Source of the DNA: Escherichia coli
GTDB lineage: Bacteria > Pseudomonadota > Gammaproteobacteria > Enterobacterales > Enterobacteriaceae
Reading direction: 5' to 3' (one strand)
NCBI GenBank assembly: GCA_902500055.1
Contig: GCA_902500055.1_4131.1
Length of the DNA: 64,000 bases
Positions 3,977 through 35,230 of this stretch are shown here, one piece after another; positions within the stretch are counted from its first letter, which is position 1; each line of letters begins with the position of its first letter. The position numbers and the translations under genes are program-made. The notes below the pieces were generated by a model. That model saw only the letters and a program-made list of their open reading frames with translations. It was not told the DNA's origin and did no database searches.

Positions 3977-4309
3977 TTACATTTTAATACCTGGATTCAG
4001 GTAGCGGTGAGATCCATATTCTGGATCGGTTTCGGTCCAGTACTGTAAATCGATAGTACCTTTCGCGTTAATCTTGTCTACCAGCTTATTCATCTTAGCG
4101 TATACTACATCAGCATCGATGCGTTTAAAGCCAGTGGCTTTAGTGAAGTAGTAGTGATTTGCTTCACTATCATTCAGGATGTACCGAGAACCGTTTGCCG
4201 TTTGTGCGATAATGATTGAGTATTCTACGTTACGGTCGAGGCCGTCGATGAATACAGAGGAAACATTAGTACGGATGAAAGCTTTAACGATAGCGATTGA
4301 AGTAGTCAT
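3977..4309 (-). CDS. hypothetical protein
   Basis: ORF track 110 aa; RBS AGGAG upstream. Confidence 0.6.
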   Translation of the reverse strand: MTTSIAIVKAFIRTNVSSVFIDGLDRNVEYSIIIAQTANGSRYILNDSEANHYYFTKATGFKRIDADVVYAKMNKLVDKINAKGTIDLQYWTETDPEYGSHRYLNPGIKM

Positions 4310-4511
4310 TTTGAATCTCCTAACTTTGTGGGCCGTCGCACCATTGCCGCCCTACGAGATACATTATTGCAGTACTGATATACTTTGTCAATACTTTTTT
4401 TATTAATAGTTTTCACTCCACCAGCAGATAGTTACTCACCGTTATTAACTATATATTTTGGATACACTTATGCACCCTGTGGGCTAGTTTTTGTCTATGC
4501 GTATATAATAG

Positions 4512-4555
4512 CAAAGGGACTGACCGGAGTCAATCCCTTTTTTTATTCTTTTTTG
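4512..4555 (-). terminator. UNCG-tetraloop intrinsic terminator (bidirectional)
   Basis: Hairpin GGGACTGACCGGAGTCAATCCC flanked by A-run and T-run. Confidence 0.5.
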
Positions 4556-7083: not shown

Positions 7084-7264
7084 GATTTTATTCCTTAATA
7101 TACCAGGGAGAACCATTTCCCCCTCTCGATATAAAACATTATACTTGATTCTAAGTACAATGCAAGTACTTTTTAAAAAATAGTTTTCAGTACTGAATAC
7201 TTATATAATAGATACACTTCCGCACCCTATGGGTCAGTGAGTTATCTCTCAATGGATATATAAT

Positions 7265-7300
7265 AGCAAAGGGACTGACCGGAGTCAATCCCTTTTTTAA
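7265..7300 (-). terminator. UNCG-tetraloop intrinsic terminator (bidirectional)
   Basis: Hairpin GGGACTGACCGGAGTCAATCCC 7271-7292, T-run on plus side. Confidence 0.5.
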
Positions 7301-7306
7301 TCTTTT

Positions 7307-7891
7307 TTATCGTGTTACCTTACTTGCTGCCACATCACGCTTTTTATAGTACTGATTCCAGATATTGCAGGTTAAACCGTAATCAAGTACTTTAATAAGG
7401 CCATTACGATCCTGGCCGATATTCTGTTTTCTGATATCTCTTATCGTTAGTGTTGATAATGTATCATCGACGTGTTGTAGTGCATCAGCAAAGCGGTGCT
7501 GGCGTTCGATTGCATTACGTTTAATATTGTACTTTAATTCATTGCACGCGTTTACGTGCTTCACACTACCTTTGCTTGCAGTACTCAACCGATCCATAAC
7601 GATAAACATATTATCAGGATCGCATAAATGCATATGCACCTTTGCAAAGTACTGTTTCAACTGAGGGCGGTCATAGTCTAAAAAATTCCATACCTTACAT
7701 TCAGTTTCATTTTGTTCTACACCCGCATCACAATTCGCGACCTTAATCACTAACCGATCATTTAAAGCGAAAACTATACGGGAAGAACCAGCACCGATGA
7801 TCTCCAGGCCAGCTAACCGACAAGCTGAAAGGATCTCTTTGTTGGTTTCCATTTCTGACAGTGTACGGATGAATTTAGTATAATTACGCAT
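7307..7891 (-). CDS. eukaryotic-like Ser/Thr protein kinase
   Basis: Gly-rich loop IGAGSSRIVF, VIKV lysine, catalytic loop IRDIRKQNIG, DFG-like IKVLDYG; start trimmed to Met20 with AAGGAGAA RBS. Confidence 0.7.
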   Translation of the reverse strand: MRNYTKFIRTLSEMETNKEILSACRLAGLEIIGAGSSRIVFALNDRLVIKVANCDAGVEQNETECKVWNFLDYDRPQLKQYFAKVHMHLCDPDNMFIVMDRLSTASKGSVKHVNACNELKYNIKRNAIERQHRFADALQHVDDTLSTLTIRDIRKQNIGQDRNGLIKVLDYGLTCNIWNQYYKKRDVAASKVTR

Positions 7892-8810: not shown

Positions 8811-9206
8811 TTAGATAACCTGGCGGCGTTTACTGTATACTGTTACACGATTACCCTTACGATCATGTCGGATCTCTTTCTGGTTGCGAATCAGTTCACT
8901 TGGACGCTTAAGGTTTGCCAGGTGATCCGCGTGAGTCCATGCGGTGTGGTTTACCTGTACTTTGATATCAGAATCAGCGATAAACTCATCTTGTGCGTCA
9001 AGTATTGCCGCCAGCATATCCGCTCGTTTTAGTTCTGCTGCTGTTAGTACTGGCTCAGGTGAATTCACAATATCAGAGATTTCTTTGAACTGTACGGCCC
9101 AGCGTTGACCTTTCGGTGCTGTCGTTCCCATGTCTTTAAATGCTGCTCCTTCCTCGCGTGCAACAATACGGGCAGCTTCACGGGTAGCGTAGAATTTAGT
9201 AATCAT
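8811..9206 (-). CDS. hypothetical protein (paralog of 20866-21132)
   Basis: Shared motifs YFATRE.AR, FKDMG, RWAV, RKGNRVTVY. Confidence 0.6.
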   Translation of the reverse strand: MITKFYATREAARIVAREEGAAFKDMGTTAPKGQRWAVQFKEISDIVNSPEPVLTAAELKRADMLAAILDAQDEFIADSDIKVQVNHTAWTHADHLANLKRPSELIRNQKEIRHDRKGNRVTVYSKRRQVI

Positions 9207-9301
9207 GGTATACATCCTATTAGTTGAGTTAGTACTACAAGTTAGAGTCTATTATAAAGTACTATCTGGGCAATGTCAAATAGTACTTTAAATGGATTCT
9301 A

Positions 9302-9625
9302 TTACATGTCTTTCTTACGTTTTACATCGTAGTAGCGAACTGTTATTTCTTTGTTAATCTCTTTTTCGATGCGGTGAATAACTTTTTCTTTCGGGTTGAA
9401 ACCTATAACGGTTTCTTTAATGATCTCCAAACCAGTGTATTCGCCTTGCGTACCGTAACCGTATGTAAAGGTTTCGTGTCCCAGGTCTTCCCAGCGGTCG
9501 CCAATTAACGCAGACACGTAGCAAGAGTGGTAAGTATTGCCGTTCCGATCAGTCCAGCGATTAACTTTAATGTCAAAGGAGGTTACAATTTTCAATTCCA
9601 CTTTCTGGGTAAGGATCATAGCCAT
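9302..9625 (-). CDS. hypothetical protein (paralog of 15258-15602)
   Basis: ORF track 107 aa; shared YGYG core and C-terminal VKRKKD. Confidence 0.6.
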   Translation of the reverse strand: MAMILTQKVELKIVTSFDIKVNRWTDRNGNTYHSCYVSALIGDRWEDLGHETFTYGYGTQGEYTGLEIIKETVIGFNPKEKVIHRIEKEINKEITVRYYDVKRKKDM

Positions 9626-9712
9626 TTTTATTTCTCTCTCTTTGTTAGGAGGGGAACCATTTCCCCGCCTTGATGTAAACTATTATACAGTACTAAGATA
9701 CTTTGTCAATAC

Positions 9713-9988
9713 TTAAGTATTGTAAATGTCGTGAATAGTGATAAAGTTTTTACGCCCGTAAACCTGTAAATCGGTATTAATGTAATGCTTATCAAGTACA
9801 TCCTCGACGCTTAAAGCCGTGTCGTGAATATCTTCGTAGAATTGAGGATCTACAATCTTGCTTAAGTCATCCGGCGTTAACTTATCGTTAAGCCATTGAA
9901 CCGCCTGGATATCTGCATCACGTTTCCATTGTTCCAGGTTAGTAGTCAGTACTTGTTCGATTTCGTTAGCTGTCAGTAGAATCCGCAT
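9713..9988 (-). CDS. hypothetical protein
   Basis: ORF track 91 aa; preceded by long duplicated leader. Confidence 0.55.
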   Translation of the reverse strand: MRILLTANEIEQVLTTNLEQWKRDADIQAVQWLNDKLTPDDLSKIVDPQFYEDIHDTALSVEDVLDKHYINTDLQVYGRKNFITIHDIYNT

Positions 9989-10002
9989 TTTAATGTTTCC
10001 TT

Positions 10003-10190
10003 ATCAGTGGTTGATGTAAGTATTATACTCGTTTACTTTCTATTGTCAAACTATTTTATCAGGGGAGTTTTTCGTATGTCTTACTCCTGGACTACTTAAC
10101 GGGGTTACTTGTTTCGTTCCCCGTCCTGATGTAAAACATTATACTTGATTCTAAGTACAATGCAAGTACTTTTTAAAAATAGTTTTCAGT
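10003..10190 (-). repeat. duplicated leader cassette with tandem promoters (copy 1 of 2)
   Basis: Near-identical to 20138-20320; contains TTGACA-16-TATAAT plus PeSL-type promoter and two hairpins. Confidence 0.6.
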
Positions 10191-10312
10191 ACTTGATAGT
10201 ACTAGCCACCAGCAAACAATAGATACATTTATGCACCCGGTGGGCTAATTTGTTTCTATGCGTATATAATAGCAAAGGGACTGACCGGAGTCAATCCCTT
10301 TTTCAATTATTT

Positions 10313-10462
10313 TTAAACTTCTTTCGGGTTGCGATAGGTGATAGCGTTCGGGTACATTTGTTTAATGTTATTCCATGCCTGGTTAACATTATAACCACTT
10401 GAGCGAATCAGTTGGTTACTACCGACACCTTGAAACACTACTTCAAATAAGAATTCTTTCAT
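10313..10462 (-). CDS. hypothetical small protein (49 aa, below ORF-track cutoff)
   Basis: Manual translation MKEFLFEVVFQG...; ATGA overlap with upstream gene stop. Confidence 0.4.
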   Translation of the reverse strand: MKEFLFEVVFQGVGSNQLIRSSGYNVNQAWNNIKQMYPNAITYRNPKEV

Positions 10463-10632
10463 GCTTTCACCTCGCTATCTGCTTTGCCTTTACGCCAGGC
10501 CGTTGCTAATTGTTCGCGTTGCCATAAGTCGAGTGATACGTAAAGTTTTGCATTATCACCCTTCGGATATTCGCCAGTAGTACCAATCCGATAAAACAGA
10601 TCTTTCAGTACTGTTAATTCTACCTGGACCAT
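10459..10632 (-). CDS. hypothetical small protein
   Basis: ORF track; start trimmed to Met35 (MVQVELTV) with AGAGGA RBS. Confidence 0.5.
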   Translation of the reverse strand: MVQVELTVLKDLFYRIGTTGEYPKGDNAKLYVSLDLWQREQLATAWRKGKADSEVKA

Positions 10633-10718
10633 TATACTTTCCTCTTTGTTAGGAGGGGAACTATTCCCCTTCCGATATAAAACATTATACACTTTATTCA
10701 GTACAGTGCAAGTACTTT

Positions 10719-10931
10719 TTAATCTTTCAGCCAATGATCCTGAATGAATTTTTCACCGAAACCTTGCTGCATTGATTGTAACAGACGTTCGCGATGAGCG
10801 GCGGCGAATTGCTCAGTACTATGCGTTACACCTGGTTGATATCTGGATTCACCATTGGGGGCGATGTATTGTACATCCCACGGTTTTTCGTTAGTATCAG
10901 ACCATTTACGAACGATTAGTTGACCTTGCAT
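10719..10931 (-). CDS. hypothetical protein
   Basis: ORF track 70 aa. Confidence 0.5.
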   Translation of the reverse strand: MQGQLIVRKWSDTNEKPWDVQYIAPNGESRYQPGVTHSTEQFAAAHRERLLQSMQQGFGEKFIQDHWLKD

Positions 10932-11017
10932 TTTTCTTTCCTCTTAGTGGGGAGAATCATTTTCTCCCCTTCATGTAACTTATTATACAGTACTATAATC
11001 TATTGTCCAGTACTTTT

Positions 11018-11206
11018 TTACAGTTTATGAATTAATTCTTTATCTAAGCGATAGCGTACATTATTAATGGTAACAGCATTATTTTTAATGCTACGCTGTA
11101 CGGGTCCACCAGCAATAACAAACGTTGCTTTATTGCCCCGAACAATGATAGCACTTCCAGGATTACCGAAATCATCTTGTACTAAAATACTTGATAAGTT
11201 TTCCAT
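11018..11206 (-). CDS. hypothetical protein
   Basis: ORF track 62 aa. Confidence 0.5.
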   Translation of the reverse strand: MENLSSILVQDDFGNPGSAIIVRGNKATFVIAGGPVQRSIKNNAVTINNVRYRLDKELIHKL

Positions 11207-11284
11207 TTTTATTTCCTCTTAGTAGGGGAAGATGTTTCCCCTTGATGCAAGTACTATAACAGTACTGAAAACTAAATGCAAGTA

Positions 11285-11641
11285 CTATGATAAAATCATG
11301 ATAGGATATTCACTATCTATCAATACCTCGAATCCGAAACCTTCGTACCATTCTTTAAGATTAAAGGCGTTATCTTCTCCCGTATCGCATTCTAAGATGA
11401 TACAATCTGAATCATCGGCGGCATCGATAAAGGCATTCATTAATTCGTTACCTTCACCATTGCCCCGACTATCAGGATCAACATAAAGAGAATCAATAAA
11501 CGCTACACGGTCATAATCAAGATCCGGTGCAATGATTCCACGTTTAACAAACCAGTACTGCAATTGTGCTACTTTGCCCTGTACCTGATAACCAGTGATC
11601 TCTCCATTGTCAGTAGTACGCGTGATATGTTGTATTCCCAT
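11285..11641 (-). CDS. GNAT-like N-acetyltransferase (putative)
   Basis: Motif YVDPDSRGNGEGNELMNAF (R-G-x-G-x-G acetyl-CoA loop) and C-terminal WYEGFGFE. Confidence 0.45.
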   Translation of the reverse strand: MGIQHITRTTDNGEITGYQVQGKVAQLQYWFVKRGIIAPDLDYDRVAFIDSLYVDPDSRGNGEGNELMNAFIDAADDSDCIILECDTGEDNAFNLKEWYEGFGFEVLIDSEYPIMILS

Positions 11642-11705
11642 GATTACTATCCTCAGTTAAGATATAAAACATTATACACTATCTTTCAGTACTGTCAATT
11701 ACTTT

Positions 11706-11963
11706 TTATCTCATAGATCTATGCCAACAATTACGCGGTTGACGTTTAAAAATACTATCATGATCCTCCTGGCAAGTTATGCAGTACTTACACCCCTTAA
11801 CGACCTGGCGGCGATTCTCAGGGATTTTATCGCCGCAGTCGAGGCAATGTATCAGTGATTCTATTTGTGCGTTAATTTGCGTTCTAGCGTGGTTAACAGC
11901 AGCCTGAATCACTGCGTTAATCTCGTCTTGTTCGGCCCCATCTTTCGCGAATCCTACAGCCAT
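11706..11963 (-). CDS. TraR/DksA-family C4 zinc-finger protein (putative)
   Basis: CLDCGDKIPENRR...CKYCITC four-cysteine motif. Confidence 0.55.
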   Translation of the reverse strand: MAVGFAKDGAEQDEINAVIQAAVNHARTQINAQIESLIHCLDCGDKIPENRRQVVKGCKYCITCQEDHDSIFKRQPRNCWHRSMR

Positions 11964-12293
11964 TATTTTAACCTCATTATAAAAATACTATAGTACTGTA
12001 ATGCGACAATAATATTACTTGTTCTTACTTTTTCCAATCCACATGATACCACATATTCATTACCATATGTGCGGAACGATACACCATGAAAATTTTTATA
12101 CACTTGCACTACTAATCATAACCTTTCGTCTAACCAACTGCATAGAATTATACTACTTTACGCAAATTGATCAAGTATTGATCAGATCATTTTTGATCAA
12201 TATTATACAGTTACATTTGTGCACCCTATGGGTTAGTGACGTTCTCGTCTTGATGTAAGTATTATGCCAGTACTGGATGATATTGTCAATAGA

Positions 12294-12491
12294 TTATTTT
12301 AATTTTTTTCTGTCATTGATTAATGCTTTCAGTACTATACTAATGATTTGCAATGATTCATCAATGACTATAAAATTATTTTCTTTCATTAGATGATAGT
12401 TACCATTGATTGTATATTCTAAGGAGTACTGTTTACGTTTAATTTTTGATAATGTTTCTATTTGTTTTTGTACTGATTTCATGCTAATCAT
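12294..12491 (-). CDS. hypothetical protein
   Basis: ORF track 65 aa. Confidence 0.45.
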   Translation of the reverse strand: MISMKSVQKQIETLSKIKRKQYSLEYTINGNYHLMKENNFIVIDESLQIISIVLKALINDRKKLK

Positions 12492-12596
12492 TGGTAAACG
12501 TCCTGTAACGCATTCTAACGAGATAAACGGTTGAGTACTGGCATTGTATAGGGTAATGAATTAAAGCCCACCAGCGTTAACCAGTGGGCTATAATC

Positions 12597-12740
12597 TTAC
12601 ATCTTGCGGATAATCTTAACAGTATCTTTCACCGATTTACCGTTTTGCTGACATTGCTCGATCATCGCGTATTGTTCTGCGGTCAGATCCTCGCCAGTTT
12701 TTGCCAGTACTGCGTCGATGAATGAATCCAGTGCGATCAT
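12597..12740 (-). CDS. hypothetical small protein (47 aa)
   Basis: Manual translation MIALDSFIDAVLAK...; RBS-like AGAGAGAGAAACAAA upstream; hairpin downstream. Confidence 0.4.
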   Translation of the reverse strand: MIALDSFIDAVLAKTGEDLTAEQYAMIEQCQQNGKSVKDTVKIIRKM

Positions 12741-12832
12741 TTTGTTTCTCTCTCTTAGGTTAAGTTAACTACTGTTTATAAAACTTATTATACAGTACTA
12801 TCAAACGTTGTCAATAGTACTGGTAATATATT

Positions 12833-13045
12833 TTAATTGATGATGGTTAATGTAAAGTTATAATCCCCTGCCTGGTATAGTACTTTATCGCCGAACGTGC
12901 CGACACGTTTCATATTGCAATAGATACCCATAACACTTTTTACATCTTTGATATTCCGAACGCCCGTAATATCCTTGTTTAAATGATCGTGATCAGAAAA
13001 TAAAACTTGTTTTGCATTTTTCAGTACAGTGCAGATATTAGCCAT
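12833..13045 (-). CDS. hypothetical protein
   Basis: ORF track 70 aa. Confidence 0.5.
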   Translation of the reverse strand: MANICTVLKNAKQVLFSDHDHLNKDITGVRNIKDVKSVMGIYCNMKRVGTFGDKVLYQAGDYNFTLTIIN

Positions 13046-13141
13046 TTTGTTTTCTCTCTCTGTTAGTGGGGAGAAGTTTTTCTCCCCTTGATGTAAACTA
13101 TTATACAGTACTATAATCTATTGTCAAACTATTTTTTTATA

Positions 13142-13483
13142 TTATTCGAAATCTTCTGGACCGGACTGATAATCATCTTCACCGTATGCACTTTCTAACT
13201 TCTCGCCAGTGTGATCATCAGTTAGTGAATCATCCTCATAATTCACGTCTACGCCTACAATGTAAAACTGGCTATCGTCTGGATCATTGAAATTAATTTT
13301 CTGAATGTTTACAATAACTGTATTGATGCCCAGGACACAGCCATCAGCCGTTACAAAGTACTGATATTTTTCACAACCGCCTGAATTGAAACCGTAATTA
13401 ATTTCGGCCCGACCATCATTTAAACGCAGTGCCTGGGCGATGATTTCATTTTCAAAGTTAGATTGAGCAATTGAGATAGTCAT
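13142..13483 (-). CDS. hypothetical acidic protein
   Basis: ORF track 113 aa. Confidence 0.55.
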   Translation of the reverse strand: MTISIAQSNFENEIIAQALRLNDGRAEINYGFNSGGCEKYQYFVTADGCVLGINTVIVNIQKINFNDPDDSQFYIVGVDVNYEDDSLTDDHTGEKLESAYGEDDYQSGPEDFE

Positions 13484-13697
13484 GATTTGTTTCCTTATTA
13501 CCAGGGGAAACCGTTTCCCCTTTCGATGTAAAACATTATACGCTTATTGAGATAGTTTGCAAGTACTTTTTAAAAATAGTTTTCAGTACTCAATACTTAT
13601 ATAATAGATACACTTATGCACCCGGTGGGCTAGTGAGCTATCTCTCAATGAATATATAATAGCAAAATGGCTGACCGAAGTCAACCACTTTTTTCAT

Positions 13698-13832
13698 TTA
13701 TTTTTTAGCTTTCAGTACTGCCGCCTTTCGCGTCATGCCTTGCTTAATGTACTCCTTTACTTTCGCTTTACGTGCTTTCGCTTTATCTGCTTTCGTTTTA
13801 GGAGTACTGTAAATTAAACCGTTAGGATTCAT
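13698..13832 (-). CDS. hypothetical small basic protein (44 aa)
   Basis: Manual translation MNPNGLIYSTPKTKADKAKARKAK...; terminator hairpin downstream; weak RBS. Confidence 0.3.
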   Translation of the reverse strand: MNPNGLIYSTPKTKADKAKARKAKVKEYIKQGMTRKAAVLKAKK

Positions 13833-13918
13833 TTAAATCACCATAAAGAATAGATAGGTTACTAACAATGCCGCGATCAATGCACCGATCACCGCTGAAC
13901 TGTAATAAGCTAATGATT

Positions 13919-14071
13919 TCATTTTTTAGCCTGAAAATAATGTTTAATTTGAGCGGCGGTCAGTGCACAATTACGCAGGAAGTTTTCTGTATAACTTTTG
14001 CGAGTACTGAAAGAGAATTGACCTTTGCCGTTACCGATAGTAACATCAAACCGAGCGTTGTATTGTTTCAT
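13919..14071 (-). CDS. hypothetical small protein
   Basis: ORF track; start trimmed to Met11. Confidence 0.45.
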   Translation of the reverse strand: MKQYNARFDVTIGNGKGQFSFSTRKSYTENFLRNCALTAAQIKHYFQAKK

Positions 14072-14152
14072 TTTGTTTCTCCTGTTATTGGGGAGAATCA
14101 TTTCTCCCCTTCATGTAAACTATTATACAGTACTAAAAACTAATTGCAAGTA

Positions 14153-14299
14153 CTATTTTTTAGATTTACGCAAACTTTCTACCATCTCAGGAGTAAGGCC
14201 CGGCGGGTAGGAAACTACTTCATCAACGAAACGTAAAGGGAATACCCCAGCGAAAGGTGAACGTGCTTTCTTAGTATTACTCTTTTTTGATGCTTTCAT
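14153..14299 (-). CDS. hypothetical small basic protein (48 aa)
   Basis: Manual translation MKASKKSNTKKARSPF...; AAGGAA RBS; PeSL upstream. Confidence 0.4.
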   Translation of the reverse strand: MKASKKSNTKKARSPFAGVFPLRFVDEVVSYPPGLTPEMVESLRKSKK

Positions 14300-14368
14300 T
14301 TCATATTCCTTAATTAGTGGGGAGAATCATTTCTCCCCTTCATGTAAAACATTATACGCGTTTAAAAA

Positions 14369-14578
14369 CTAATTGCAAGTACTATTTGAAAGTAAATGCT
14401 CATACGCTGCATTAACTACGTTTTCAATAACCGACTGTACAGAAAGATCCCCCACGTCCTGGCTATAGTAGAAATCGCTTACAGTGGTGTCATCGTATGC
14501 AAATACTTTACCAGGTACGGCATCAATCACATACATATTAACCTTTAAGATGTCGATCTTATCCTGTACAGTAAGCAT
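14369..14578 (-). CDS. hypothetical protein
   Basis: ORF track 69 aa. Confidence 0.5.
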   Translation of the reverse strand: MLTVQDKIDILKVNMYVIDAVPGKVFAYDDTTVSDFYYSQDVGDLSVQSVIENVVNAAYEHLLSNSTCN

Positions 14579-14583
14579 ATTAA

Positions 14584-14856
14584 TTAACCTTTTAAGTACT
14601 GGCTTAAGTAGTCTTGTTGATCTTCGGTGATTGCAGCCATCTTCCCTAGTACTGGATTGATGATATAATCCCCTGTAACGTCCTGTAACGCATTCTCAGG
14701 CGGTTTAACGGCTGGGGTAGCCATAGCCATTGCCTGGACTTGTTCGACGCTGTAACGCTCATATAGGCGGCATTCTTCCGGTGTTAACATAGCATCAGTA
14801 CGCTTCATCGGTTTAATGATGCTTTCGATCTCATTCAGTACTTGATTAACGTTCAT
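14584..14856 (-). CDS. hypothetical protein
   Basis: ORF track 90 aa. Confidence 0.55.
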   Translation of the reverse strand: MNVNQVLNEIESIIKPMKRTDAMLTPEECRLYERYSVEQVQAMAMATPAVKPPENALQDVTGDYIINPVLGKMAAITEDQQDYLSQYLKG

Positions 14857-14907
14857 GGTATAATCCCCAATATAAGCGGCCTGAATCGACCGCTAACGAT
14901 GTTTTGA

Positions 14908-15177
14908 TTAATAGGTGTATGGTTGACGCTCAAACAATGATTGCACGTTGTACGCCCCGCTTATGGGCTTCGCTGGTAAATCAATTTTATATTGTTCACG
15001 CTTAAAGATAATAAAACGGCAATTGTTTTTAACATCAAAATTGATTGAACGTTCCAGGAGTTTACCATCGTGCACAAATACAAGATAACCGCTTGGTACT
15101 TGTTTTGTAGTACTGGTTGCAACCATAGACCGCCGAACATGTGTACCTGCATCGATTAAAGTACTGATATTTTTCAT
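14908..15177 (-). CDS. hypothetical protein
   Basis: ORF track 89 aa. Confidence 0.5.
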   Translation of the reverse strand: MKNISTLIDAGTHVRRSMVATSTTKQVPSGYLVFVHDGKLLERSINFDVKNNCRFIIFKREQYKIDLPAKPISGAYNVQSLFERQPYTY

Positions 15178-15257
15178 TATACGATCCTCTTAAGTTAATT
15201 TAATTTCTTTCCCCTATGCAGACACTATATCAAAGTATCTGCATAAAGTAAAGCTAA

Positions 15258-15602
15258 TTAAAGATCTTTTTTGCGTTTAACATCAGTTACCGAACTGTAA
15301 ACAGTGATATTATTGTCACGGCAAAAACGGGAAAGATAAGAACCGCGTAAAAACTCTTTATCTTCCATATTAATAACCTTGCTAAATTCTTCCATTGCTA
15401 CAGTGTCAAAGTGATCCCCGTATCCATATTGGAACGGCACGTTTACTACTTCAATAAAATTACCATCAATTTCTACGTCTACACTTAAAGAGAAATAAGT
15501 GTTACCATATGAAGCCTGGAACCAACGCCGAGCGGCAATATGTACAACTTCAACAGAAGACAGGTTGATATTTTGTTTTGCGATAGTGTTGATATTAGCC
15601 AT
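15258..15602 (-). CDS. hypothetical protein (paralog of 9302-9625)
   Basis: ORF track 114 aa; shared C-terminal VKRKKD and YGYG core. Confidence 0.6.
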   Translation of the reverse strand: MANINTIAKQNINLSSVEVVHIAARRWFQASYGNTYFSLSVDVEIDGNFIEVVNVPFQYGYGDHFDTVAMEEFSKVINMEDKEFLRGSYLSRFCRDNNITVYSSVTDVKRKKDL

Positions 15603-15690
15603 TTTAATTTCCTCTTAGTTGTCTTGATAAAATCTATTATGCCAGTACTATCAAACTATGTCAATAGTACTGTGATAATATTTTTACTTA
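15603..15690 (-). repeat. about 90 bp promoter-region direct repeat (second copy 15897-15990)
   Basis: TTGTTTCCTCTTAGTTGTCTTGATAAAATCTATTATGCCAGTACTATCAAACTATGTCAATAGTACTGTGATAATATTTTTACTTAC occurs twice. Confidence 0.7.
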
Positions 15691-15896
15691 CTTTCTTTCG
15701 CTGCTTTGTGCGTTGCCACTGCCATAACCACATCAGCACGAACAAAGTTTTTTACCGTGTCAGTGTAGTAATTGATTGCATCGTCAACATCTGTAAAAAT
15801 CCGATACATGCCGCACCACGATACTTTATAACCTTCTTTCACTTCTTCCAGCTTAACCAGTGATTTGTTTACTTTGATTTTTGTGATGATAGCCAT
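15684..15896 (-). CDS. hypothetical protein
   Basis: ORF track 70 aa. Confidence 0.55.
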   Translation of the reverse strand: MAIITKIKVNKSLVKLEEVKEGYKVSWCGMYRIFTDVDDAINYYTDTVKNFVRADVVMAVATHKAAKESK

Positions 15897-15977
15897 TATT
15901 GTTTCCTCTTAGTTGTCTTGATAAAATCTATTATGCCAGTACTATCAAACTATGTCAATAGTACTGTGATAATATTT

Positions 15978-16121
15978 TTACTTACTTTTTGCTTTCTTTG
16001 CTGCTTCCACCTGGTCGGCCCACTCTTTACCCCATACCTGAGCGTTATAGTGATACTGACAAAGAGCAACGCCCCGCTTTAAACCAGTAATAGATTTCTG
16101 ACCACATTGACAAGTTTTCAT
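15978..16121 (-). CDS. hypothetical small Cys-containing protein (47 aa)
   Basis: Manual translation MKTCQCGQKSITGLKRGVALCQYHY...; AAGGAAA RBS. Confidence 0.4.
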   Translation of the reverse strand: MKTCQCGQKSITGLKRGVALCQYHYNAQVWGKEWADQVEAAKKAKSK

Positions 16122-16207
16122 TTTAGTTTCCTTGTAGTGGGGAGAACCATTTTCTCCCCTTGATGTAATGTATTATACTTTATTCGATTTACTTTGCAAG
16201 TACTTTT

Positions 16208-16435
16208 TTAATTTAATTCATCAAGGCAAAGGATACGCTCAACGCCCAAATCAGTTAAACTAATCGACGGCACTTGATAGGTTTCAATGTATGCTACACT
16301 TGCCCACTGACCGAACTCATTAACGGCCCAGGTATTCATTGCATTTTGCAATTCCGCACCTTCCTTGTTGGTAATGACTGCAACTACTTGTTCGTTGCCA
16401 GTAGTACCAGATACGCGAGTAATGATAATAGCCAT
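16208..16435 (-). CDS. hypothetical protein
   Basis: ORF track; start trimmed to Met20. Confidence 0.5.
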   Translation of the reverse strand: MAIIITRVSGTTGNEQVVAVITNKEGAELQNAMNTWAVNEFGQWASVAYIETYQVPSISLTDLGVERILCLDELN

Positions 16436-16669
16436 TGTTTTGATTCCTTTGATTTGGAAGGAGAACCGTTTCCCCCTCTCGATGTAAAACATTATACGCT
16501 AATCTCTTAATCGTGCAAGTACTTTTTATTACTTTTTGCAAAATACTTTAAACGCACTCAATCGCATTCTAACGACTTTAACGCCACCAGCTAGGGCAAT
16601 GCATCAGATAAACAGTTTAATACGTTAGAATCGTTTCTAGGCGGTGCTGGTGGCCTGGTAAACGATAAA

Positions 16670-16700
16670 CACAAAAAAGCCCACTGTATAAGTGGGCTAA
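16670..16700 (-). terminator. intrinsic terminator
   Basis: Minus strand hairpin AGCCCACTTATACAGTGGGCT followed by TTTTTTGTG. Confidence 0.55.
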
Positions 16701-16719
16701 TGATTCAGTACTTTAATTG

Positions 16720-17202
16720 TTATGCTTCAACTTTGCGATGAGCTTCGATCCATTCCTCGCGAGTCATACCACTGGAGTTAATCGCATCCAGTACTACCGC
16801 AATGCAGTTACCACGCACCGGAATCAGATATTCTTCCCCGTTATCAAGTACTACCGCTACACGTTCTTGAATCCATTTTTTAGCTTTTACTTCTGGCTTA
16901 TCTTCACCGTACTTTTTCGCCAGGGCTTTTTGTGCCATCTCTGTAACTACTTCCAGATCCAATCCAACTACTGCCGCCTGAATACTTTCAATTGTTGCTT
17001 GTAGTTCTGCTTCACGGGCCGCCTTTGCCGCTTCAATTTCTGCCGCTTTATTTGCTTGTAGTTCTTTCGCAGTACTGTAAGCGATGTTAAAATTATTGCG
17101 TACCGCTTTCATGGTATCGTTATCCAGTTCAGCCAGGATCTCAGCCGCGACGTTAGTTTCATTTGCTACCAGTGCTTTGATGAATGATTTTACATTAGCC
17201 AT
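16720..17202 (-). CDS. hypothetical Ala-rich coiled-coil protein
   Basis: ORF track; start trimmed to Met6 with GAGGA RBS. Confidence 0.6.
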   Translation of the reverse strand: MANVKSFIKALVANETNVAAEILAELDNDTMKAVRNNFNIAYSTAKELQANKAAEIEAAKAAREAELQATIESIQAAVVGLDLEVVTEMAQKALAKKYGEDKPEVKAKKWIQERVAVVLDNGEEYLIPVRGNCIAVVLDAINSSGMTREEWIEAHRKVEA

Positions 17203-17401
17203 TTTATAAATCCTCAATTAAAGTTTAGTTTACGTTTATTAGTGTATCAAAGTTTTCTCGACGTGTCCAGTTTTTCGTTCGACTTACTGGCGGTCTACTT
17301 AGTGCTCCCCGTCTTGATGTAATACATTCTACGCTTTTCTGCGGTAATGTCAACTACTTTCTTAAAACTATTTTCAAAGTATCTCAGTACTACGATACTA
17401 C

Positions 17402-17431
17402 AAAAACAAAAAAAGCCCACCAGGTGGGCTA
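17402..17431 (-). terminator. intrinsic terminator
   Basis: Minus strand hairpin AGCCCACCTGGTGGGCT followed by TTTTTTTGTTTTTG. Confidence 0.6.
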
Positions 17432-17436
17432 TGTAC

Positions 17437-17667
17437 TTAATCAGTGAGTAAAATATTAAACACTTTACCATTTAACGTTATTGGTGCACTGCTACCAGGC
17501 TCAAGATCCGTTAATATACCTGCAATCGCTTTATCATTGGCGACCTTTCCAGTGTCCAACAGTACTACAGTACTGATAAGATTAACGCTCGTTTCAATAT
17601 CATAATGCACGGCGTTAAGTAGTTGTGTAGTACTGCTTTCGTTAAGTAAAACAATTCGCTTAGTCAT
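17437..17667 (-). CDS. hypothetical protein
   Basis: ORF track 76 aa. Confidence 0.5.
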   Translation of the reverse strand: MTKRIVLLNESSTTQLLNAVHYDIETSVNLISTVVLLDTGKVANDKAIAGILTDLEPGSSAPITLNGKVFNILLTD

Positions 17668-17688
17668 GATGTTACCCCGTAGTATCTA

Positions 17689-17988
17689 TCAACGGCAATT
17701 AATAACGCCGGTATGCGTTACTTTCTCAGTATCCATTACAGTGACCGAACCGCGTTTAGTACTGGCATCATAATAAATTGTCGTGCTACCGTTTTCGTCT
17801 TCTTCATGGAACGGGCCGTTTTTAAATGCTTCCGGCTGAATCTCCAGATCCTTTAATACAATCTCGCCAGTACTTTCATCGGTCATTGCAACAGTGCACT
17901 GAATGAATTTTTCACTACTTACATCTAATGACGCATTAACAGCGAAAGAGGAAACAGATAAAGCCAGGGCGATGATTGTAATTTTCAT
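17689..17988 (-). CDS. secreted protein (signal peptide)
   Basis: N-terminus MKITIIALALSVSSFAVNAS. Confidence 0.55.
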   Translation of the reverse strand: MKITIIALALSVSSFAVNASLDVSSEKFIQCTVAMTDESTGEIVLKDLEIQPEAFKNGPFHEEDENGSTTIYYDASTKRGSVTVMDTEKVTHTGVINCR

Positions 17989-18072
17989 TTGATTATCCTT
18001 AGTTACCAGGGGGAACCGCTCCCCCTTGCGATGTAAAATATTATACAGTACTAAAAACTATTATCAAGTACT

Positions 18073-18309
18073 TTATGATTTTTTATAAAACATTTCAGCA
18101 GTGATATTTTTACCCGTTGGCTGTACTTTATCCAGAATTTTTTGATGCCCTGGTCGTCCAAAGGAATATGATCCGTAAACAGTAAACCAGTAGTTGCCAT
18201 CAGTGTTTACATGTACAGCACAATAGGGTACGCCCCGCGATTCATCACTAGTAAAGTGTGCTACCGTTCCCGTTACATTCGAAGTCGTTGATTTGATTTG
18301 TTCAAGCAT
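18073..18309 (-). CDS. hypothetical protein
   Basis: ORF track 78 aa. Confidence 0.5.
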   Translation of the reverse strand: MLEQIKSTTSNVTGTVAHFTSDESRGVPYCAVHVNTDGNYWFTVYGSYSFGRPGHQKILDKVQPTGKNITAEMFYKKS

Positions 18310-18553
18310 TTTATTATTCCTTAGTTACCAGGGGGAACCGCTCCCCCTATGCAAAACATTATACGCGTTTAAAAACTAATTGCAAGTATTTTAATAAAAA
18401 GTATTTGAAAAATAGTTGTTGACAAGTGCATCCAGTACTGGCATAATTACTACATCAAGACGAAACAGTCACTAACCCACCGGGTGCCGAGATCCGTCTA
18501 TTAAATGATTCAGTACTGAAAAAGTAACGGGGAGTTATTATCTCCCCGCGTTG

Positions 18554-18775
18554 TTATTTTGTAAGGTATAAACAGAAGTCGCCTTTATTTGCTACGCCGC
18601 CAGTGTAACGCGATGAATAGTTAGAAACGTCCTGGACTTCTGCTATTACCAGGGTATCATCATTCAATTCGTCGCAGAAGCAAACGGCTGGATCTTGTAC
18701 GCCGATTTTGTCGGCATGTTCCCGCATAGATTTCACCAGTGCTTCCAGTTGGGAAAGAGTAGTGATATTAGCCAT
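18554..18775 (-). CDS. hypothetical protein
   Basis: ORF track; start trimmed to Met11. Confidence 0.5.
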   Translation of the reverse strand: MANITTLSQLEALVKSMREHADKIGVQDPAVCFCDELNDDTLVIAEVQDVSNYSSRYTGGVANKGDFCLYLTK

Positions 18776-18863
18776 TTTATTTTCCTCATTACCAGGGAGA
18801 ACCATTTCTCCCTTTGATGTAAACCATTATACAGTACTGAAAACTAATTGCAAGTACTTTTTT

Positions 18864-19124
18864 TCAGTATTGTTTATCGTCGTCTTCCTCGATGAATTGA
18901 CCGACGAAATGATCTACTTTCGCTTTGAGGCTTTTATAATCTTCTTCTACTTCCGTTAAACGTTCCTGGTAGTATTCCAGTGCCTCAAGATACGCCGCCT
19001 CAGCAGTTTTTGCACGCATAGCTAAATTCATTCCACGCGTTTCATCATAAAGCCAATAACCATCGGTGCACTGGCTAATAGATAATGACTTGCTTAGTGC
19101 TGTATAGCTAATTACTTTACTCAT
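18864..19124 (-). CDS. hypothetical protein
   Basis: ORF track 86 aa. Confidence 0.5.
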   Translation of the reverse strand: MSKVISYTALSKSLSISQCTDGYWLYDETRGMNLAMRAKTAEAAYLEALEYYQERLTEVEEDYKSLKAKVDHFVGQFIEEDDDKQY

Positions 19125-19181
19125 TAGATAACCCTCAGTAAAGGCGGGAACTATTACCCGCCATTATCTCAGTACTGAATA

Positions 19182-19421
19182 TTACATTCCAACCATTGCA
19201 GCACGGATCGCCGTAGTGCTATACTTGAATCCGTCCGGCGTTGTAGTAGTACCGTTGGCTTTTAATCTGCGGTACATACATTCCGCAGCAATATCTTTCG
19301 TTTTACTTTGTGCGATGCAATTTTGAGCAATCCGGTATAATGATTCATCGTTATTGATCCAAAGGCTTACATTCCAATGAGTTTTGTTTTTGTGCCCGTT
19401 GTAAGTTTTAGTACTAGCCAT
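19182..19421 (-). CDS. hypothetical protein (paralog of 21221-21460)
   Basis: Shared HKNKTHWNVSLWINNDE and TPDGFKYSTTAIRAAMVGM. Confidence 0.6.
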   Translation of the reverse strand: MASTKTYNGHKNKTHWNVSLWINNDESLYRIAQNCIAQSKTKDIAAECMYRRLKANGTTTTPDGFKYSTTAIRAAMVGM

Positions 19422-19511
19422 TTTTAAATCCTCGTTTGAGCGGGGAACCACTCCCCGCCTTGATGTAAAGTATTATACGCTTTTAAACTTAGTTTACAAG
19501 TACTTTTTAAA

Positions 19512-20120
19512 TTAATATTCGATTGATTCCACTACGCCATCAATAACATTGAATTGATATTCGTTACCCTCAATCAGTGCAGTAATGTTTTCAGTAGTGA
19601 ATTGATCCTCATATGCATTCTCTAAATCACGGTACAACTTACGAGATAATTCACGGATCGCATCAGTCAGTAAGTTTTCCAGATCCTCAGCCAATGCCGC
19701 CTGTTTTACAGTTAAATCAGTGTAGCGAGTATCAACGCAACCGCCTACCGTGTTTTCGTGTGCGTAGCGTGATTGGAAACGTTCTACACTCATTTCTAAA
19801 TCATCCTCGTTCAACAGGTGACGGATTGAACGATATTTCGTTAACGCCTTAACCTTGCGTAAAAACTTCTCAGCGTCAACGTGGTTAGTACTGATTGATG
19901 CACCGTCACCTTGCGACCAAAAACCACTGTATTGCAATTCAGCTTCATCTATGCCGTATTCTGGTAGTACTGTTTCTTTATAGTACTCGATAACGCCCTC
20001 AGCAAAGAAATTATCCTCACATGAACGCTCACGATCCCGAACCAGTTCAATAGCCGCCGTTTTTTGTTCTGCGTTCAGTTCAGAAAAAGCCATAACAAAA
20101 GTAGTAGTGATAGTTTTCAT
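19512..20120 (-). CDS. hypothetical acidic protein
   Basis: ORF track 202 aa; GAGGG RBS; preceded by duplicated leader. Confidence 0.6.
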   Translation of the reverse strand: MKTITTTFVMAFSELNAEQKTAAIELVRDRERSCEDNFFAEGVIEYYKETVLPEYGIDEAELQYSGFWSQGDGASISTNHVDAEKFLRKVKALTKYRSIRHLLNEDDLEMSVERFQSRYAHENTVGGCVDTRYTDLTVKQAALAEDLENLLTDAIRELSRKLYRDLENAYEDQFTTENITALIEGNEYQFNVIDGVVESIEY

Positions 20121-20137
20121 TTTGTAACCCTCATTCA

Positions 20138-20320
20138 GTAGTTGATGTAAGTATTATACGCTTTTACTTTCTATTGTCAAACTATTTTATCAGGGGAGTT
20201 TTTCGTGTGCCTTACTCCTGGGCTACTTAACGGGAAGTTACTTATTTCGTTCCCCGTCCTGATGTAAAACATTATACGCCTTTAAACATAGTTTACAAGT
20301 ACTTTTTAAAAATAGTTTTC
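20138..20320 (-). repeat. duplicated leader cassette with tandem promoters (copy 2 of 2)
   Basis: Near-identical to 10003-10190. Confidence 0.6.
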
Positions 20321-20547
20321 AGTACTGAATATTAAAAAAAAGTATTGACAGCATTATCAAGTACTGGCATAATATACCCCATGACAACAGCTAACCCACC
20401 GGGTGCACAATTGTAACTATACTAAACTAATTTTTCTATAGATACACTCCCGCACCCTATGGGCTACGGCTTATCTGCCAATGAATACATTATGCCAGTA
20501 CTGACAAAATAAGTCAATACCGGCAATTGTAAAGATTTGTAAACTGC

Positions 20548-20784
20548 TTATACTGCAATCGCGTCCAGGCTGTAATAATAATAAGTGCCGTATTGGTGTA
20601 CTTTATTACCTTTTATTTCAGTACTGAATGAATCCGAACGGTTTGCATATGATGTTAATTTAAAGTACTTTGATTTGCTGATACGTTGCCATACACCACA
20701 GATCCGCTGTAAGTAAGTAGTTTTATTCGTGGTAGTATCTTTTACGGTTTTAACTTCAGTCATATACATATTAGTCATTTTCAT
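20548..20784 (-). CDS. hypothetical protein
   Basis: ORF track 78 aa. Confidence 0.45.
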   Translation of the reverse strand: MKMTNMYMTEVKTVKDTTTNKTTYLQRICGVWQRISKSKYFKLTSYANRSDSFSTEIKGNKVHQYGTYYYYSLDAIAV

Positions 20785-20865
20785 TACTCCAGGTTATAGG
20801 CGGGAAGAGTTCCCGCTCTCGATGTAAAACATTATACGCTTTTATCAGTACGGTGCAAGTACTTT

Positions 20866-21132
20866 TTATTCAAGTACTGCAATCTTTTTAGTACGGTACA
20901 CGGTCACGCGGTTGCCCTTTCGGTCGAGCTTTATTTCTACCACTCGACGCGATACACTATCGGGACTTTTTAAGGCCGCTAACCAGTACTGTAATGATCT
21001 GGCCGTACTACGCTTTACAATGGCCCAACGTTCACCACTTGCCGATCCCGCTCCCATATCTTTAAACGTTGCCCCGTCCTGGCGTGCGGCGATCCGAGCT
21101 TGTTCACGCGTCGCAAAATACTTAATATTCAT
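20866..21132 (-). CDS. hypothetical protein (paralog of 8811-9206)
   Basis: Start trimmed to Met13; shared motifs with 8811-9206. Confidence 0.6.
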   Translation of the reverse strand: MNIKYFATREQARIAARQDGATFKDMGAGSASGERWAIVKRSTARSLQYWLAALKSPDSVSRRVVEIKLDRKGNRVTVYRTKKIAVLE

Positions 21133-21220
21133 GTTGTTGCCCTTATCGTTGGTGTATGAATAAAACACTATTATAAAGTACTATCCCCGTGCAATAGTAC
21201 TTTAAATAAATTCTATTCTA

Positions 21221-21460
21221 TTACATTCCAACCATAGCCGCACGGATCGCAGTAGTGCTATATTTGAATCCGTCCGGTGTTTTATCTTGTCCAGTCTGTT
21301 CTAAAAATAACATCATATGACGGGCCGCATCATTGCGATTAGTATTGGCGGCAATAAAGTCCAGGGCCAACCGATACAATCCCTCATCGTTATTAATCCA
21401 CAGGCTTACATTCCAATGAGTTTTGTTTTTGTGACCTAAGAACATTTTTGATTTAGCCAT
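21221..21460 (-). CDS. hypothetical protein (paralog of 19182-19421)
   Basis: Start trimmed to Met14; shared motifs. Confidence 0.6.
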   Translation of the reverse strand: MAKSKMFLGHKNKTHWNVSLWINNDEGLYRLALDFIAANTNRNDAARHMMLFLEQTGQDKTPDGFKYSTTAIRAAMVGM

Positions 21461-21552
21461 TTTTTTAATCCTCTTATATAGTGGGGAACTATTCCCCACC
21501 TGATGTAAAACATTATACGCTTTTATTCAGTACTGTCAAACTAATTTTTAAC

Positions 21553-22740: not shown

Positions 22741-22875
22741 GATTTAGCCGTCTATACTTCCAGACGTGTAACCATCTAGCCGTTTAGCCGTCCAAACGTC
22801 TAGCCATCCAGCCATCCAGAAATCTAGCCGTTTAGCCGTCTAGATGGATAGCCATCTTTACTTCCAGACTTCTGG
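22741..22875. repeat. iteron-like short direct and inverted repeat cluster
   Basis: TAGCCGT/TAGCCAT heptamer about 8 times, CTAGCCGTTTAGCCGTC twice, palindrome CCATCTAG/CTAGATGG, ACTTCCAGAC twice. Confidence 0.65.
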
Positions 22876-23925
22876 AGGGCTAGACATATCTACGTCCAAA
22901 ATCCACCCAGGGTAACTACACCCAAAATCCGTCAGTACTATACCATAGATCTATCTTTTGAAAGGGAGTATTCAGTACTGCCATCATAGCCCTCACTATG
23001 TTACCCTAGGAGGATGAAGACCATCATGTAGTACTGAATACTGTTAGAGGGAATCCACCAGCTTGTGCTGGTGGCATAATGCATTAAATTAAAATCAGTA
23101 CTGACACCATTCTGTTAATATCAGTACTGTTTATATTACGAAAAAAGAGGTTATAAAAAGATGTACCACCCATAGGAGGAACTATCCTTTCAGTACTGTC
23201 TCACGACAGGAGGTAGAGTGAATGAATTGTTTGCGGCAACTCATCTCTCTATGTAGAACATTATACAGTACTGAATCATAATGTCAATAGCTTTCTTTCA
23301 TTATTCAGTACTGATATTCTTGAGAACTACCCGACTACAAACATCATTATATCCCACAAATCATAAACGTCCCAACGTAAATTTCAACTTTCGAAGATCC
23401 AACTTTTATTTCATAGGTACTCCAAAATTTTTAGGATCGAGATTTAGGATGGAGTACTAACCAACTTTTTGCTGGAGCCTCAAGGGGTAATGGAATTTTA
23501 CCCCGAAGGGTAAAAGGGTAATTGTAATTAAGGTGAAAGTAATAATTCAGTACTAATCATTGTGTGATTACTTTTGATTACATTTGATGTAATTTGCAAA
23601 ATGGAAAAGGAGCTTGGAAACTACAAAGTACGGCAGACTTCCTCTGCCTACTTAGTGGGATATCAGTACTGAATCATTCACACACATTTCCGTGCATTCT
23701 TGAGCAATCTTGTCTATACTAATCAGTACTGAATCATATATAATCATTCTGTGATTCTACGGTGCTCATATAAATGTTTATATATGATTACTTATGACTA
23801 CCTATGATTACGGGGTTTAGCCTGGGGAGAATCCTAGTGATCGCATTTGTCCAGGCTGAATTTTAACAATTCGCCTGTACATAAAGGTTGTTCACTAGGA
23901 GCTTCCCCTGTCTCTATGTGTTTAA

Positions 23926-28296: not shown

Positions 28297-28398
28297 GTGT
28301 AGTTCTCCTTGTATTCCTTCTATAGTACACCAGTACTGAAAGGATGTCAAGGGTTTTGTTTATGGGGTAAATATGATATAATGAATAAAGGAGGAAAT

Positions 28399-29304: not shown

Positions 29305-29316
29305 TTTGGAGGAAAT

Positions 29317-30466: not shown

Positions 30467-30475
30467 ATTAATATA

Positions 30476-30502
30476 CCAGTACTTGATACTGGCTTTTTTT
30501 GA
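30476..30502 (+). terminator. family C cassette terminator hairpin
   Basis: CCAGTACTTGATACTGG followed by T7. Confidence 0.6.
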
Positions 30503-30534
30503 TTAAATATAGTATAATGAATAAAGGAGGAAAT

Positions 30535-31644: not shown

Positions 31645-31650
31645 TACTAT

Positions 31651-31678
31651 GCCAGTACTTGATACTGGCTTTTTTTGA
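31651..31678 (+). terminator. family C cassette terminator hairpin
   Basis: GCCAGTACTTGATACTGGC followed by T-run. Confidence 0.6.
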
Positions 31679-31711
31679 TTAAATATAGTATAATGAATAA
31701 AGGAGGGAATT

Positions 31712-32839: not shown

Positions 32840-32846
32840 ATACTAT

Positions 32847-35224: not shown

Positions 35225-35230
35225 CATAAT

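Follow-up and report, generated by a model that had tools for sequence, protein, structure and literature searches.

The stretch analysed here (the window) comprises 64,000 nucleotides of an Escherichia coli assembly (GCA_902500055.1, contig GCA_902500055.1_4131.1) and holds the early region, a terminal repeat of approximately 21 kb, of a jumbo coliphage that is Asteriusvirus-like and belongs to the 121Q/PBECO4/phAPEC6 group. Our subject is a repeat of roughly 195 bp within this region, present ahead of two unrelated genes, in which two promoters enclose a short structured element. The minus strand carries every gene from about 3.9 to 23.3 kb of the window, and the repeat is therefore read on that strand. 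At least 20 dispersed cassettes, each consisting of a sigma70 promoter, a GC-rich stem-loop and a ribosome-binding site (RBS) ahead of a small gene, populate the early region; a regular-expression search returned 20 minus-strand promoters at 3.9-23.3 kb, a repeat search returned at least 25 promoter copies in repeat family D1, and the ordinary neighbouring cassettes have one GGGGAGAA..TTCTCCCC hairpin apiece. The best database match is 94% identical, and relatives span just 40-68% of 9000-21500, in many pieces, which marks the region as mosaic. The equivalent region of phage vB_Ec-M-J, whose ends are annotated, is a 21.5-kb direct terminal repeat in which all genes point inward from the left end, and its coordinates would place the left genome end at around position 23,990 of the window. 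In fEgEco12, experiments have confirmed terminal repeats some 21 kb long (PMC13070987). Neither the promoters nor the module is mentioned in the open-access papers on this jumbo phage group.

The two copies of the repeat, at 10003-10197 (module A) and 20133-20327 (module B), align on the minus strand with 178 of 202 columns identical (88%), and the original prediction of a duplicated leader is thereby borne out: the likeness spans the whole repeat, including the transcribed part, rather than promoter sequence alone, and falls sharply beyond it, to 56% further upstream and 45% in the first codons. Each copy runs in the order promoter P1, structured leader, consensus promoter P2, short 5' untranslated region (UTR) and gene. 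P2 is a perfect TTGACA-16-TATAAT in both modules (10049-10022 and 20180-20153, minus strand; 12 of 12 consensus matches), and the weaker P1, with a perfect -10 box in both, lies about 115 nt upstream of it. Two hairpins sit between P1 and P2, directly downstream of the P1 start, and the leader from P1 measures about 143 nt, in agreement with the anatomy first proposed. Identity varies along the repeat, from 92% in the AT-rich stretch upstream of P1 and 68% across the P1 -35 box, spacer and -10 box to 93.5% in the transcribed core of about 80 nt (which has one 2-nt indel in a hairpin loop), 94% in P2 and 77% in the P2 5' UTR, taken as the last 35 nt before the ATG. The earlier description of the copies as nearly identical thus suits the core and P2 but not the distal promoters, which have different spacers and -35 boxes (TTGCAT and TTGTAA). 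The further claim that the two genes are under identical control is overstated, since the distal promoters differ and transcripts from P2 would be without the element. Sub-patterns of the core occur in the window at modules A and B alone, with 0 expected by chance.

In module A, P1 (10138-10197, minus strand) consists of an AT-rich stretch at 10197-10172, the -35 box TTGCAT at 10165-10160, a 16-nt spacer and the -10 box TATAAT at 10143-10138, with a predicted start near 10131. Because its -35 box agrees with the consensus at only 3 of 6 positions, the promoter scan did not list it, and it was located by reading and by regular expression; the spacer and -35 box are those of the cassette at 7129-7183 (families D1/D3). 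The structured leader core (10058-10130, minus strand), supported by its minimum free energy (MFE) fold, by a covariance model and by covariation, has a closing stem of AUCAGG (10130-10125) with CCUGAU (10063-10058), within which follow hairpin 1 (ACGGGG..CCCCGU, 10124-10099), the heptamer UAAGUAG (10098-10092) and two short stems, S1, pairing GUC (10092-10090) with GAC (10080-10078), and S2, pairing GGAG (10087-10084) with CUCC (10067-10064), with conserved loops UAAG and ACGAAAAA. The predicted start of P2 is near 10015, followed by a 5' UTR of about 25 nt, an RBS near 10001-9996 and gene A (9713-9988, minus strand), which encodes an acidic protein of 91 aa (isoelectric point, pI, 4.4; phrog_14947). 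Module B is laid out in the same way. Its P1 (20271-20327, minus strand) has TTGTAA at 20298-20293, a 16-nt spacer and TATAAT at 20276-20271 (10 of 12 matches), with the AT-rich upstream stretch common to module A, a spacer that resembles the cassette at 19463-19517 and a predicted start near 20264; its core (20189-20263, minus strand) has 2 nt more in the hairpin-1 loop and S1 as GCC/GGC; and gene B (19512-20120, minus strand) encodes an acidic protein of 202 aa (pI 4.5; phrog_5162). Genes A and B were predicted to be unrelated, and indeed they have no detectable similarity to each other and belong to different PHROGs.

The original prediction missed both a third copy of the element in the window (17261-17303) and the homology described below. 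This minimal and diverged copy (17236-17353, minus strand) combines a promoter TTGACA-16-TAGAAT (17353-17326; predicted start near 17319), the element itself (17303-17261) and at best a weak second promoter. Hairpin 1 is absent from it; UAAGUAG is present, together with S1 as GAC/GUC, S2 as CCAG/CUGG and a closing stem GACG/CGUC, and its S2 carries compensatory differences relative to modules A and B. The gene that follows (16720-17202, minus strand; 160 aa, pI 5.0, phrog_27871) has homologues downstream of the element in phages Munch and Hallingskeid. A signature of UAAGUAG-N-C-N6-7-UAAG-N-C-NN-ACGAAA plus the 3' arm of S2 has three exact matches in the window against 0 expected, and a covariance model run with filters off yields these three copies only; a weak hit of the model at 23623-23656, considered as a fourth copy, lacks the structure. 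In vB_Ec-M-J three copies likewise lie within the direct terminal repeat, at 3.8, 6.8 and 14.2 kb. For the genes downstream of the three copies in the window (9713-9988, 19512-20120 and 16720-17202), sequence searches of Pfam, PADLOC and PDB gave no match, and the PHROGs to which they belong pointed to no function. All three encode acidic proteins (pI 4.4, 4.5 and 5.0), and the T7 gene at this position encodes Ocr, an acidic anti-restriction protein.

With the third copy as query, BLAST led to Rak2-like jumbo phages of Salmonella and Klebsiella, to a jumbo phage of Erwinia and to the T7-like phage phiA1122, and through the last of these to an element in T7 itself, at nt 551-590, between the host promoters A1 (498) and A2 (626). 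The T7 sequence reads hairpin CCGG-GGUCAA-CCGG, UAAGUAG, AC, AGCCUG, AUAAGUCGCACGAAAAA, CAGG, with the A2 -35 box 2 nt further on. A search with the T7 segment found 486 phage records, one place in each, from hosts that include Escherichia, Klebsiella, Salmonella, Yersinia, Enterobacter, Citrobacter and others, and a degenerate pattern retrieved 32 IMG/VR stretches, mostly on T7-like contigs of 37-45 kb. The homology was tested non-circularly with a covariance model built from T7-group sequences only, which ranks the three copies of the window first (E = 6e-6, 3e-5 and 1e-4, the second and third being modules A and B; no further hit is better than E = 2.6); in the filters-off scan of the window, modules A and B reach E = 1e-11 and 4e-11. 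On these sequence comparisons, the core of the window is homologous to the inter-promoter element of T7. The element lies 20-55 nt downstream of a sigma70 early promoter and is usually followed by a second promoter (starts as predicted), at a distance from core to next -35 box of 2 to about 60 nt; Munch and Hallingskeid have the order promoter, element, second promoter, gene, as T7 does.

The likeness to the early control region of T7 (A1, A2 and A3; nt 498-750 of NC_001604) extends to its setting, with tandem strong sigma70 promoters at the leading end of the genome on entry, the element between the first two of them (hairpin, UAAGUAG, GAC..CCUG..UAAGUC..ACGAAAAA..CAGG) and an early takeover gene, ocr, after it. 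In contrast to the window with its three copies, T7 has one copy per genome, a separate 5' hairpin in place of the closing stem, and a 430-nt leader with a boxA and an RNase III site, and it has no array of small-gene cassettes. The T7 element is not named in the annotation or in the open-access papers retrieved; searches for T7 leader structure, for the literal T7 sequence and for Asteriusvirus transcription found no description; an older one may exist.

As an RNA, the element can be described as combining a closing stem and a variable hairpin with the invariant UAAGUAG and the S2 hairpin, whose loop pairs back to a GNC just after UAAGUAG through a GN'C within it (S1). Among 32 distinct sequences 93.8% of cells are paired, and shifting the 3' partners by 1-3 columns lowers the figure to 18-43%, although the sequences are related and cell counts overstate the number of independent events. 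Three of the five S2 pairs swap CG/GC or AU/UA, and the G-U pairs that occur are valid on the transcribed strand only. The middle pair of S1 is A-U in 20 of the 32 sequences, U-A in seven, C-G in four and mismatched in one. The window alone holds S1 as GUC/GAC, GCC/GGC and GAC/GUC and S2 as GGAG/CUCC or CCAG/CUGG, with GAC/GUC and CCUG/CAGG in T7, and S1 variants recur in separate lineages: GUC/GAC in module A and a T7-like contig (L029), GCC/GGC in module B, muut and another T7-like contig (L036). RNAalifold, run on nine jumbo-type sequences, recovered S1 unaided. Of 30 distinct contexts, 26 have a hairpin that abuts UAAGUAG, built from many different stem sequences; among shuffles the share is 21%. 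MFE folds of modules A and B, the minimal copy, Munch and Hallingskeid contain the closing stem and S2, plus hairpin 1 where the copy has one, the closing stem of the jumbo-type folds joining the first transcribed bases to sequence 3' of S2; the T7 fold has hairpin 1 and S2 but no closing stem. Fold z-scores of the cores lie between -0.3 and -4.1 (-2.7 for module A), and the full 150-nt leaders fold marginally better than shuffles (z = -1.6 and -1.3), the signal sitting in the core. Because S1 and S2 cannot nest, they form either an H-type pseudoknot or alternative structures, and we regard them as a candidate for the former, in which the loops UAAG and ACGAAA are conserved. The suggestion that the leader may itself be regulatory has gained strength from these compensatory base changes and from the leader core being among the most conserved parts of the repeat.

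The duplication is not private to this genome. A search with the 81-nt core located exactly two places in each of about 35 related jumbo phages, in which both copies are fixed (four places where the record includes both terminal repeats), and one place each in muut, EmilieFrey and outra (Justusliebigvirus) and in A73, W70, A7_1 and A5-4 (filed under Vequintavirinae), otherwise unrelated coliphages of about 145 kb and of rV5-like and phi92-like types. Core identity across these phages is 88-100%, and the flanking promoters and downstream genes differ. Module-type copies stand before five unrelated gene families: the 91-aa gene (module A and muut), the 202-aa gene (module B), a 66-aa gene (121Q copy A), a 75-aa gene (A73 and W70) and a 79-83-aa DUF7249 gene (four phages). 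In 121Q, the orthologous A copy precedes the 66-aa gene in place of the 91-aa one. Muut shares with the window a 514-bp block at 93% identity that extends from the distal -10 box through core, P2 and the 91-aa gene to the promoter of the next cassette, and copy A of vB_Ec-M-J has yet another distal-promoter spacer. These mosaic distal promoters support a movable regulatory unit with exchange points inside shared promoter sequences, and exchange of this kind seems, from the block in common with muut, to reach across lineages as well. The proposal of a mobile module is thus upheld, the core and P2 standing before three further unrelated families. Two-piece BLAST places in fEgEco12 and UE-S1, considered as a split module, proved to be merely matches of the next upstream promoter.

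The element resembles none of the known RNAs with which it was compared. Rfam 15 gave no match at the modules (E up to 1) or in the T7, phiA1122, L036 and L029 loci (E up to 5). A coding mini-ORF or leader peptide was rejected, as the hairpin-1 loop has non-triplet indels, two frames contain stop codons, and the open frame has no start codon, the only ATG overlapping the -10 box. A tRNA-like or other host mimic was rejected because 5,426 E. coli genomes hold no match, and a bacterial genome collection yielded nothing but one T7-like contig from a metagenome-assembled genome. An intrinsic terminator was rejected likewise: neither core was called in the scan and no U-tract follows the core hairpins, the only call being the hairpin at 10301-10274. 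The sole exact rrn-type boxA 12-mer (GCTCTTTAACAA) of the window, at 58627-58638 on the plus strand, lies in a coding-like stretch and is probably a chance occurrence.

The hairpin at 10301-10274 is part of a terminator-like 12-bp hairpin with an embedded promoter, TTGACT-17-TATTAT (10266-10301, minus strand), directly upstream of module A, and its position indicates that module A heads a transcription unit. It belongs to family D17, five copies of which lie at 10219-10316, 4488-4555, 7243-7310, 13639-13706 and 47446-47513, each with the 12-bp-stem hairpin and embedded promoter followed by a conserved leader with GCCCACCGGGUGC. Salmonella phage Munch has a stretch homologous to D17, and another D17-like stretch (20345-20430, plus strand) lies upstream of module B, where an apparent plus-strand promoter TTGACA-17-CATAAT (20345-20373) runs opposite to the genes. 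Family D17 may represent a further conserved early RNA. Across the whole window there are 72 occurrences of the palindromic octamer CAGTACTG, against about 1 expected (for example at 20320-20327, 7188-7195 and 18832-18839). The octamer often directly adjoins a -10 box (CAGTACTGTATAAT, giving an extended -10) or sits in the loops of terminators, and a DNA-binding protein of phage or host, or a modification enzyme, may recognise it. About 12 imperfect 8-bp repeats (TAGCCGTC) form an array at 22745-22843, about 1.2 kb from the inferred left genome end, and could be linked to genome ends or packaging; T7 has short repeats near its left end too. Further along, at 28300-42300 on the plus strand, about ten paralogous units of about 1.2 kb (families D8-D12, D18 and D19) stand in an array, sharing a conserved stretch near the 5' end and, at the end of each unit, a GCCAGTACT..TACTGGC hairpin with a T-run.

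The setting of the repeat recalls the promoter-early-stem-loop cassettes (PeSLs) of the T4-type phages RB49/phi1, PST and nt-1 (Arbiol 2010, PMC2839356; Comeau 2014, PMC4122927), at which, as published, recombination moves genes along with the signals that regulate them, and which have been proposed to shuffle genes (PMC2839356). PeSLs are dispersed units of about 100 bp that place an AT-rich stretch, sigma70 promoter, stem-loop and RBS ahead of small ORFans in a plastic early region; their stem-loop acts as a terminator or attenuator, their recombination yields mini-circles, and they are tied to gene replacement between relatives and to the transfer of a gene with its signals. The early region of the window likewise has AT-rich sigma70 promoters, stem-loops next to them and many dispersed copies before ORFans, and gene replacement between close relatives is seen in the 121Q A copy, the muut block and the patchy coverage of relatives. 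In contrast, the phage of the window is Rak2-like and jumbo rather than T4-type, and its duplicated unit is a double promoter enclosing an RNA element that is kept across phage families and whose loops are invariant, features absent from ordinary PeSL stem-loops. Given a core that shares homology with the T7 element and is widespread in very different virulent enterobacterial phages, the unit is more aptly called an early-leader architecture of old standing and wide conservation than a mobile promoter cassette of the generic kind.

We consider it probable that each repeat is a composite early unit, made up of P1, a structured leader RNA that acts in cis by binding a shared host component, P2 and a gene, with the promoters as recombination sites. 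Only transcripts from P1 would carry the RNA element of about 75 nt, which would act as RNA, in cis, on transcripts made by host RNA polymerase. Since the loops are invariant across phages that share only hosts, the element probably binds a host component, presumably one common to all these phages; RNA polymerase or an elongation or termination factor would be our preferred guess, in which case transcription initiated at P1 would read on through the untranslated leader and an early region rich in stem-loops. The next option would be that the element shields the 5' end against decay. The flanking promoters, like the many other early promoters of the region, would act as PeSL-like recombination sites, a role that would explain how the element came to stand before unrelated genes and to cross between phage lineages. 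Among possible functions we infer a ranking in which an effect in cis on elongation or termination comes first, followed by 5'-end protection, a small RNA or decoy acting in trans and, last, a DNA-level role for P2.

Several points weigh against a cis-acting leader RNA of this kind. The start sites and the RNA are predictions, and none of the tests made here points to a particular ligand or to antitermination. The boxA sequence (GCTCTTTAACAA) is found neither in nor near the modules with one mismatch allowed, and in the whole HK022 genome, scanned with covariance model R1 and filters off, the top hit reaches only E = 0.79 and lies elsewhere than at the early promoters. Module B and the third copy have weak fold z-scores (-1.2 and -0.3). 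S1 is just 3 bp, with variation confined to its middle pair, its outer G and C having been fixed by the retrieval pattern; a pattern relaxed at the outer pairs added chance hits within coding sequence but no further true homologue. The two stems could form as alternatives to each other rather than as one fold, and part of the conservation could lie at the DNA level, as the A-rich loop of the T7 group occupies the position of an A2 UP element.

Of the alternatives, an RNA acting in trans fares best, though we judge it unlikely. The strong P1 would supply an abundant small RNA or decoy, possibly processed (as in T7, with RNase III at R0.3), that sequesters or mimics a host component such as a defence sensor, an RNA chaperone or a nuclease, and P2 would let the downstream gene be expressed independently. 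The element is almost always between two promoters, implying that the downstream gene does not need it; MFE folds give a compact, closed domain; the invariance of the loops across unrelated phages of the same hosts fits a trans target as well; and the first T7 gene after the element is the anti-restriction gene ocr, which makes the locus one devoted to first-line takeover. Against this, neither a terminator nor a recognisable processing site follows the core in the jumbo-phage modules, and no E. coli sequence resembles the core, so that no mimicry of a host RNA is seen at the level of sequence.

A more specific version of the cis-acting leader, rather unlikely in our estimate, makes the element an analogue of put or of nut/boxA with an unrelated pseudoknot fold, acting on host polymerase or its elongation and termination factors. 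The put sites of HK022 are cis-acting antiterminator RNAs just downstream of early promoters, and put, like the element, is a two-helix RNA of about 70 nt right after a strong early coliphage promoter and on the transcripts of that promoter only; the topology of the element, a pseudoknot candidate plus closing stem, is different, and no similarity in sequence or structure was found. With boxA/nut and rrn-type leaders there is the further parallel that in T7-group phages the element is followed, some 50-400 nt downstream, by an exact rrn-type boxA, whereas the jumbo-phage modules have none. In the T7-like contig L036 (IMG/VR 2030936005_000003, positions 4112-4178) a boxA lies within about 25 nt of the element with no obvious sigma70 promoter between, and there the two may work together. 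If this analogy were true, transcription from the first early promoter would be resistant to pausing, Rho and hairpin terminators, with consequences for the transcription-driven genome entry of T7 and the expression of ocr; jumbo phages would read through the hairpin-punctuated genes of their terminal repeats; and the spread over T7-like, Rak2-like, rV5-like and phi92-like phages would reflect a common host target.

We find it doubtful that the repeat is a mere PeSL-type mobile promoter/terminator cassette, with generic attenuator hairpins, a functionless core and a likeness between copies due to recent duplication, gene conversion or horizontal transfer. The region is full of promoter and stem-loop cassettes of the sort described as gene-moving sites, and the mosaic promoters, swapped downstream genes and muut block are in keeping with this view; copies A and B of 121Q share the variant ACGAAAACC and the two modules of the window share ACGAAAAAC, which hints at gene conversion. 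Yet the core is conserved above its flanking promoters, is common to T7-group phages without cassette arrays, and keeps its loops invariant while its stems change by compensatory substitution across distant lineages; it also has no U-tract, is not called a terminator, and occurs in just three of the at least 20 cassettes. Finally, conservation of the core as DNA, as an upstream activating or UP-like region or a protein-binding site for P2, is very improbable. In its favour, the 3' arm of S2 ends 2 nt before the A2 -35 box in most T7-group phages, with the A-tract of the loop at about -43 to -50, and another A-tract precedes P2 in the modules. Against it, the spacing to the next -35 box varies, the L036 locus has no obvious sigma70 promoter before its boxA, the third copy of the window has at best a weak second promoter, and pairing-preserving changes that include one-strand G-U pairs are unexpected for a duplex binding site; the variable spacing and the one-strand G-U pairs make this role the least likely.

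Two aspects of the composite early unit appear to be new. Judged from sequence, PeSL-like cassettes occur in a phage group where they had not previously been described, which would extend to that group the idea of cassettes as recombination sites that move genes with their signals. More important is a probable conserved structured leader RNA common to T7-group, Rak2-like/Asteriusvirus, rV5-like and phi92-like phages, for which we found no open-access description. T7 is among the best-studied phages, and yet the structured element between A1 and A2 is unannotated and outside Rfam. Very different virulent enterobacterial phages have it at an equivalent site, just behind the first early host-type promoter and usually ahead of a second, where its loops stay invariant and its stems covary; this speaks for an interaction with host machinery that these phages have in common as infection begins, within its first minutes. 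For the jumbo phages the element offers a first handle on expression of the terminal-repeat early region, and the genetics of T7 makes its role directly testable.

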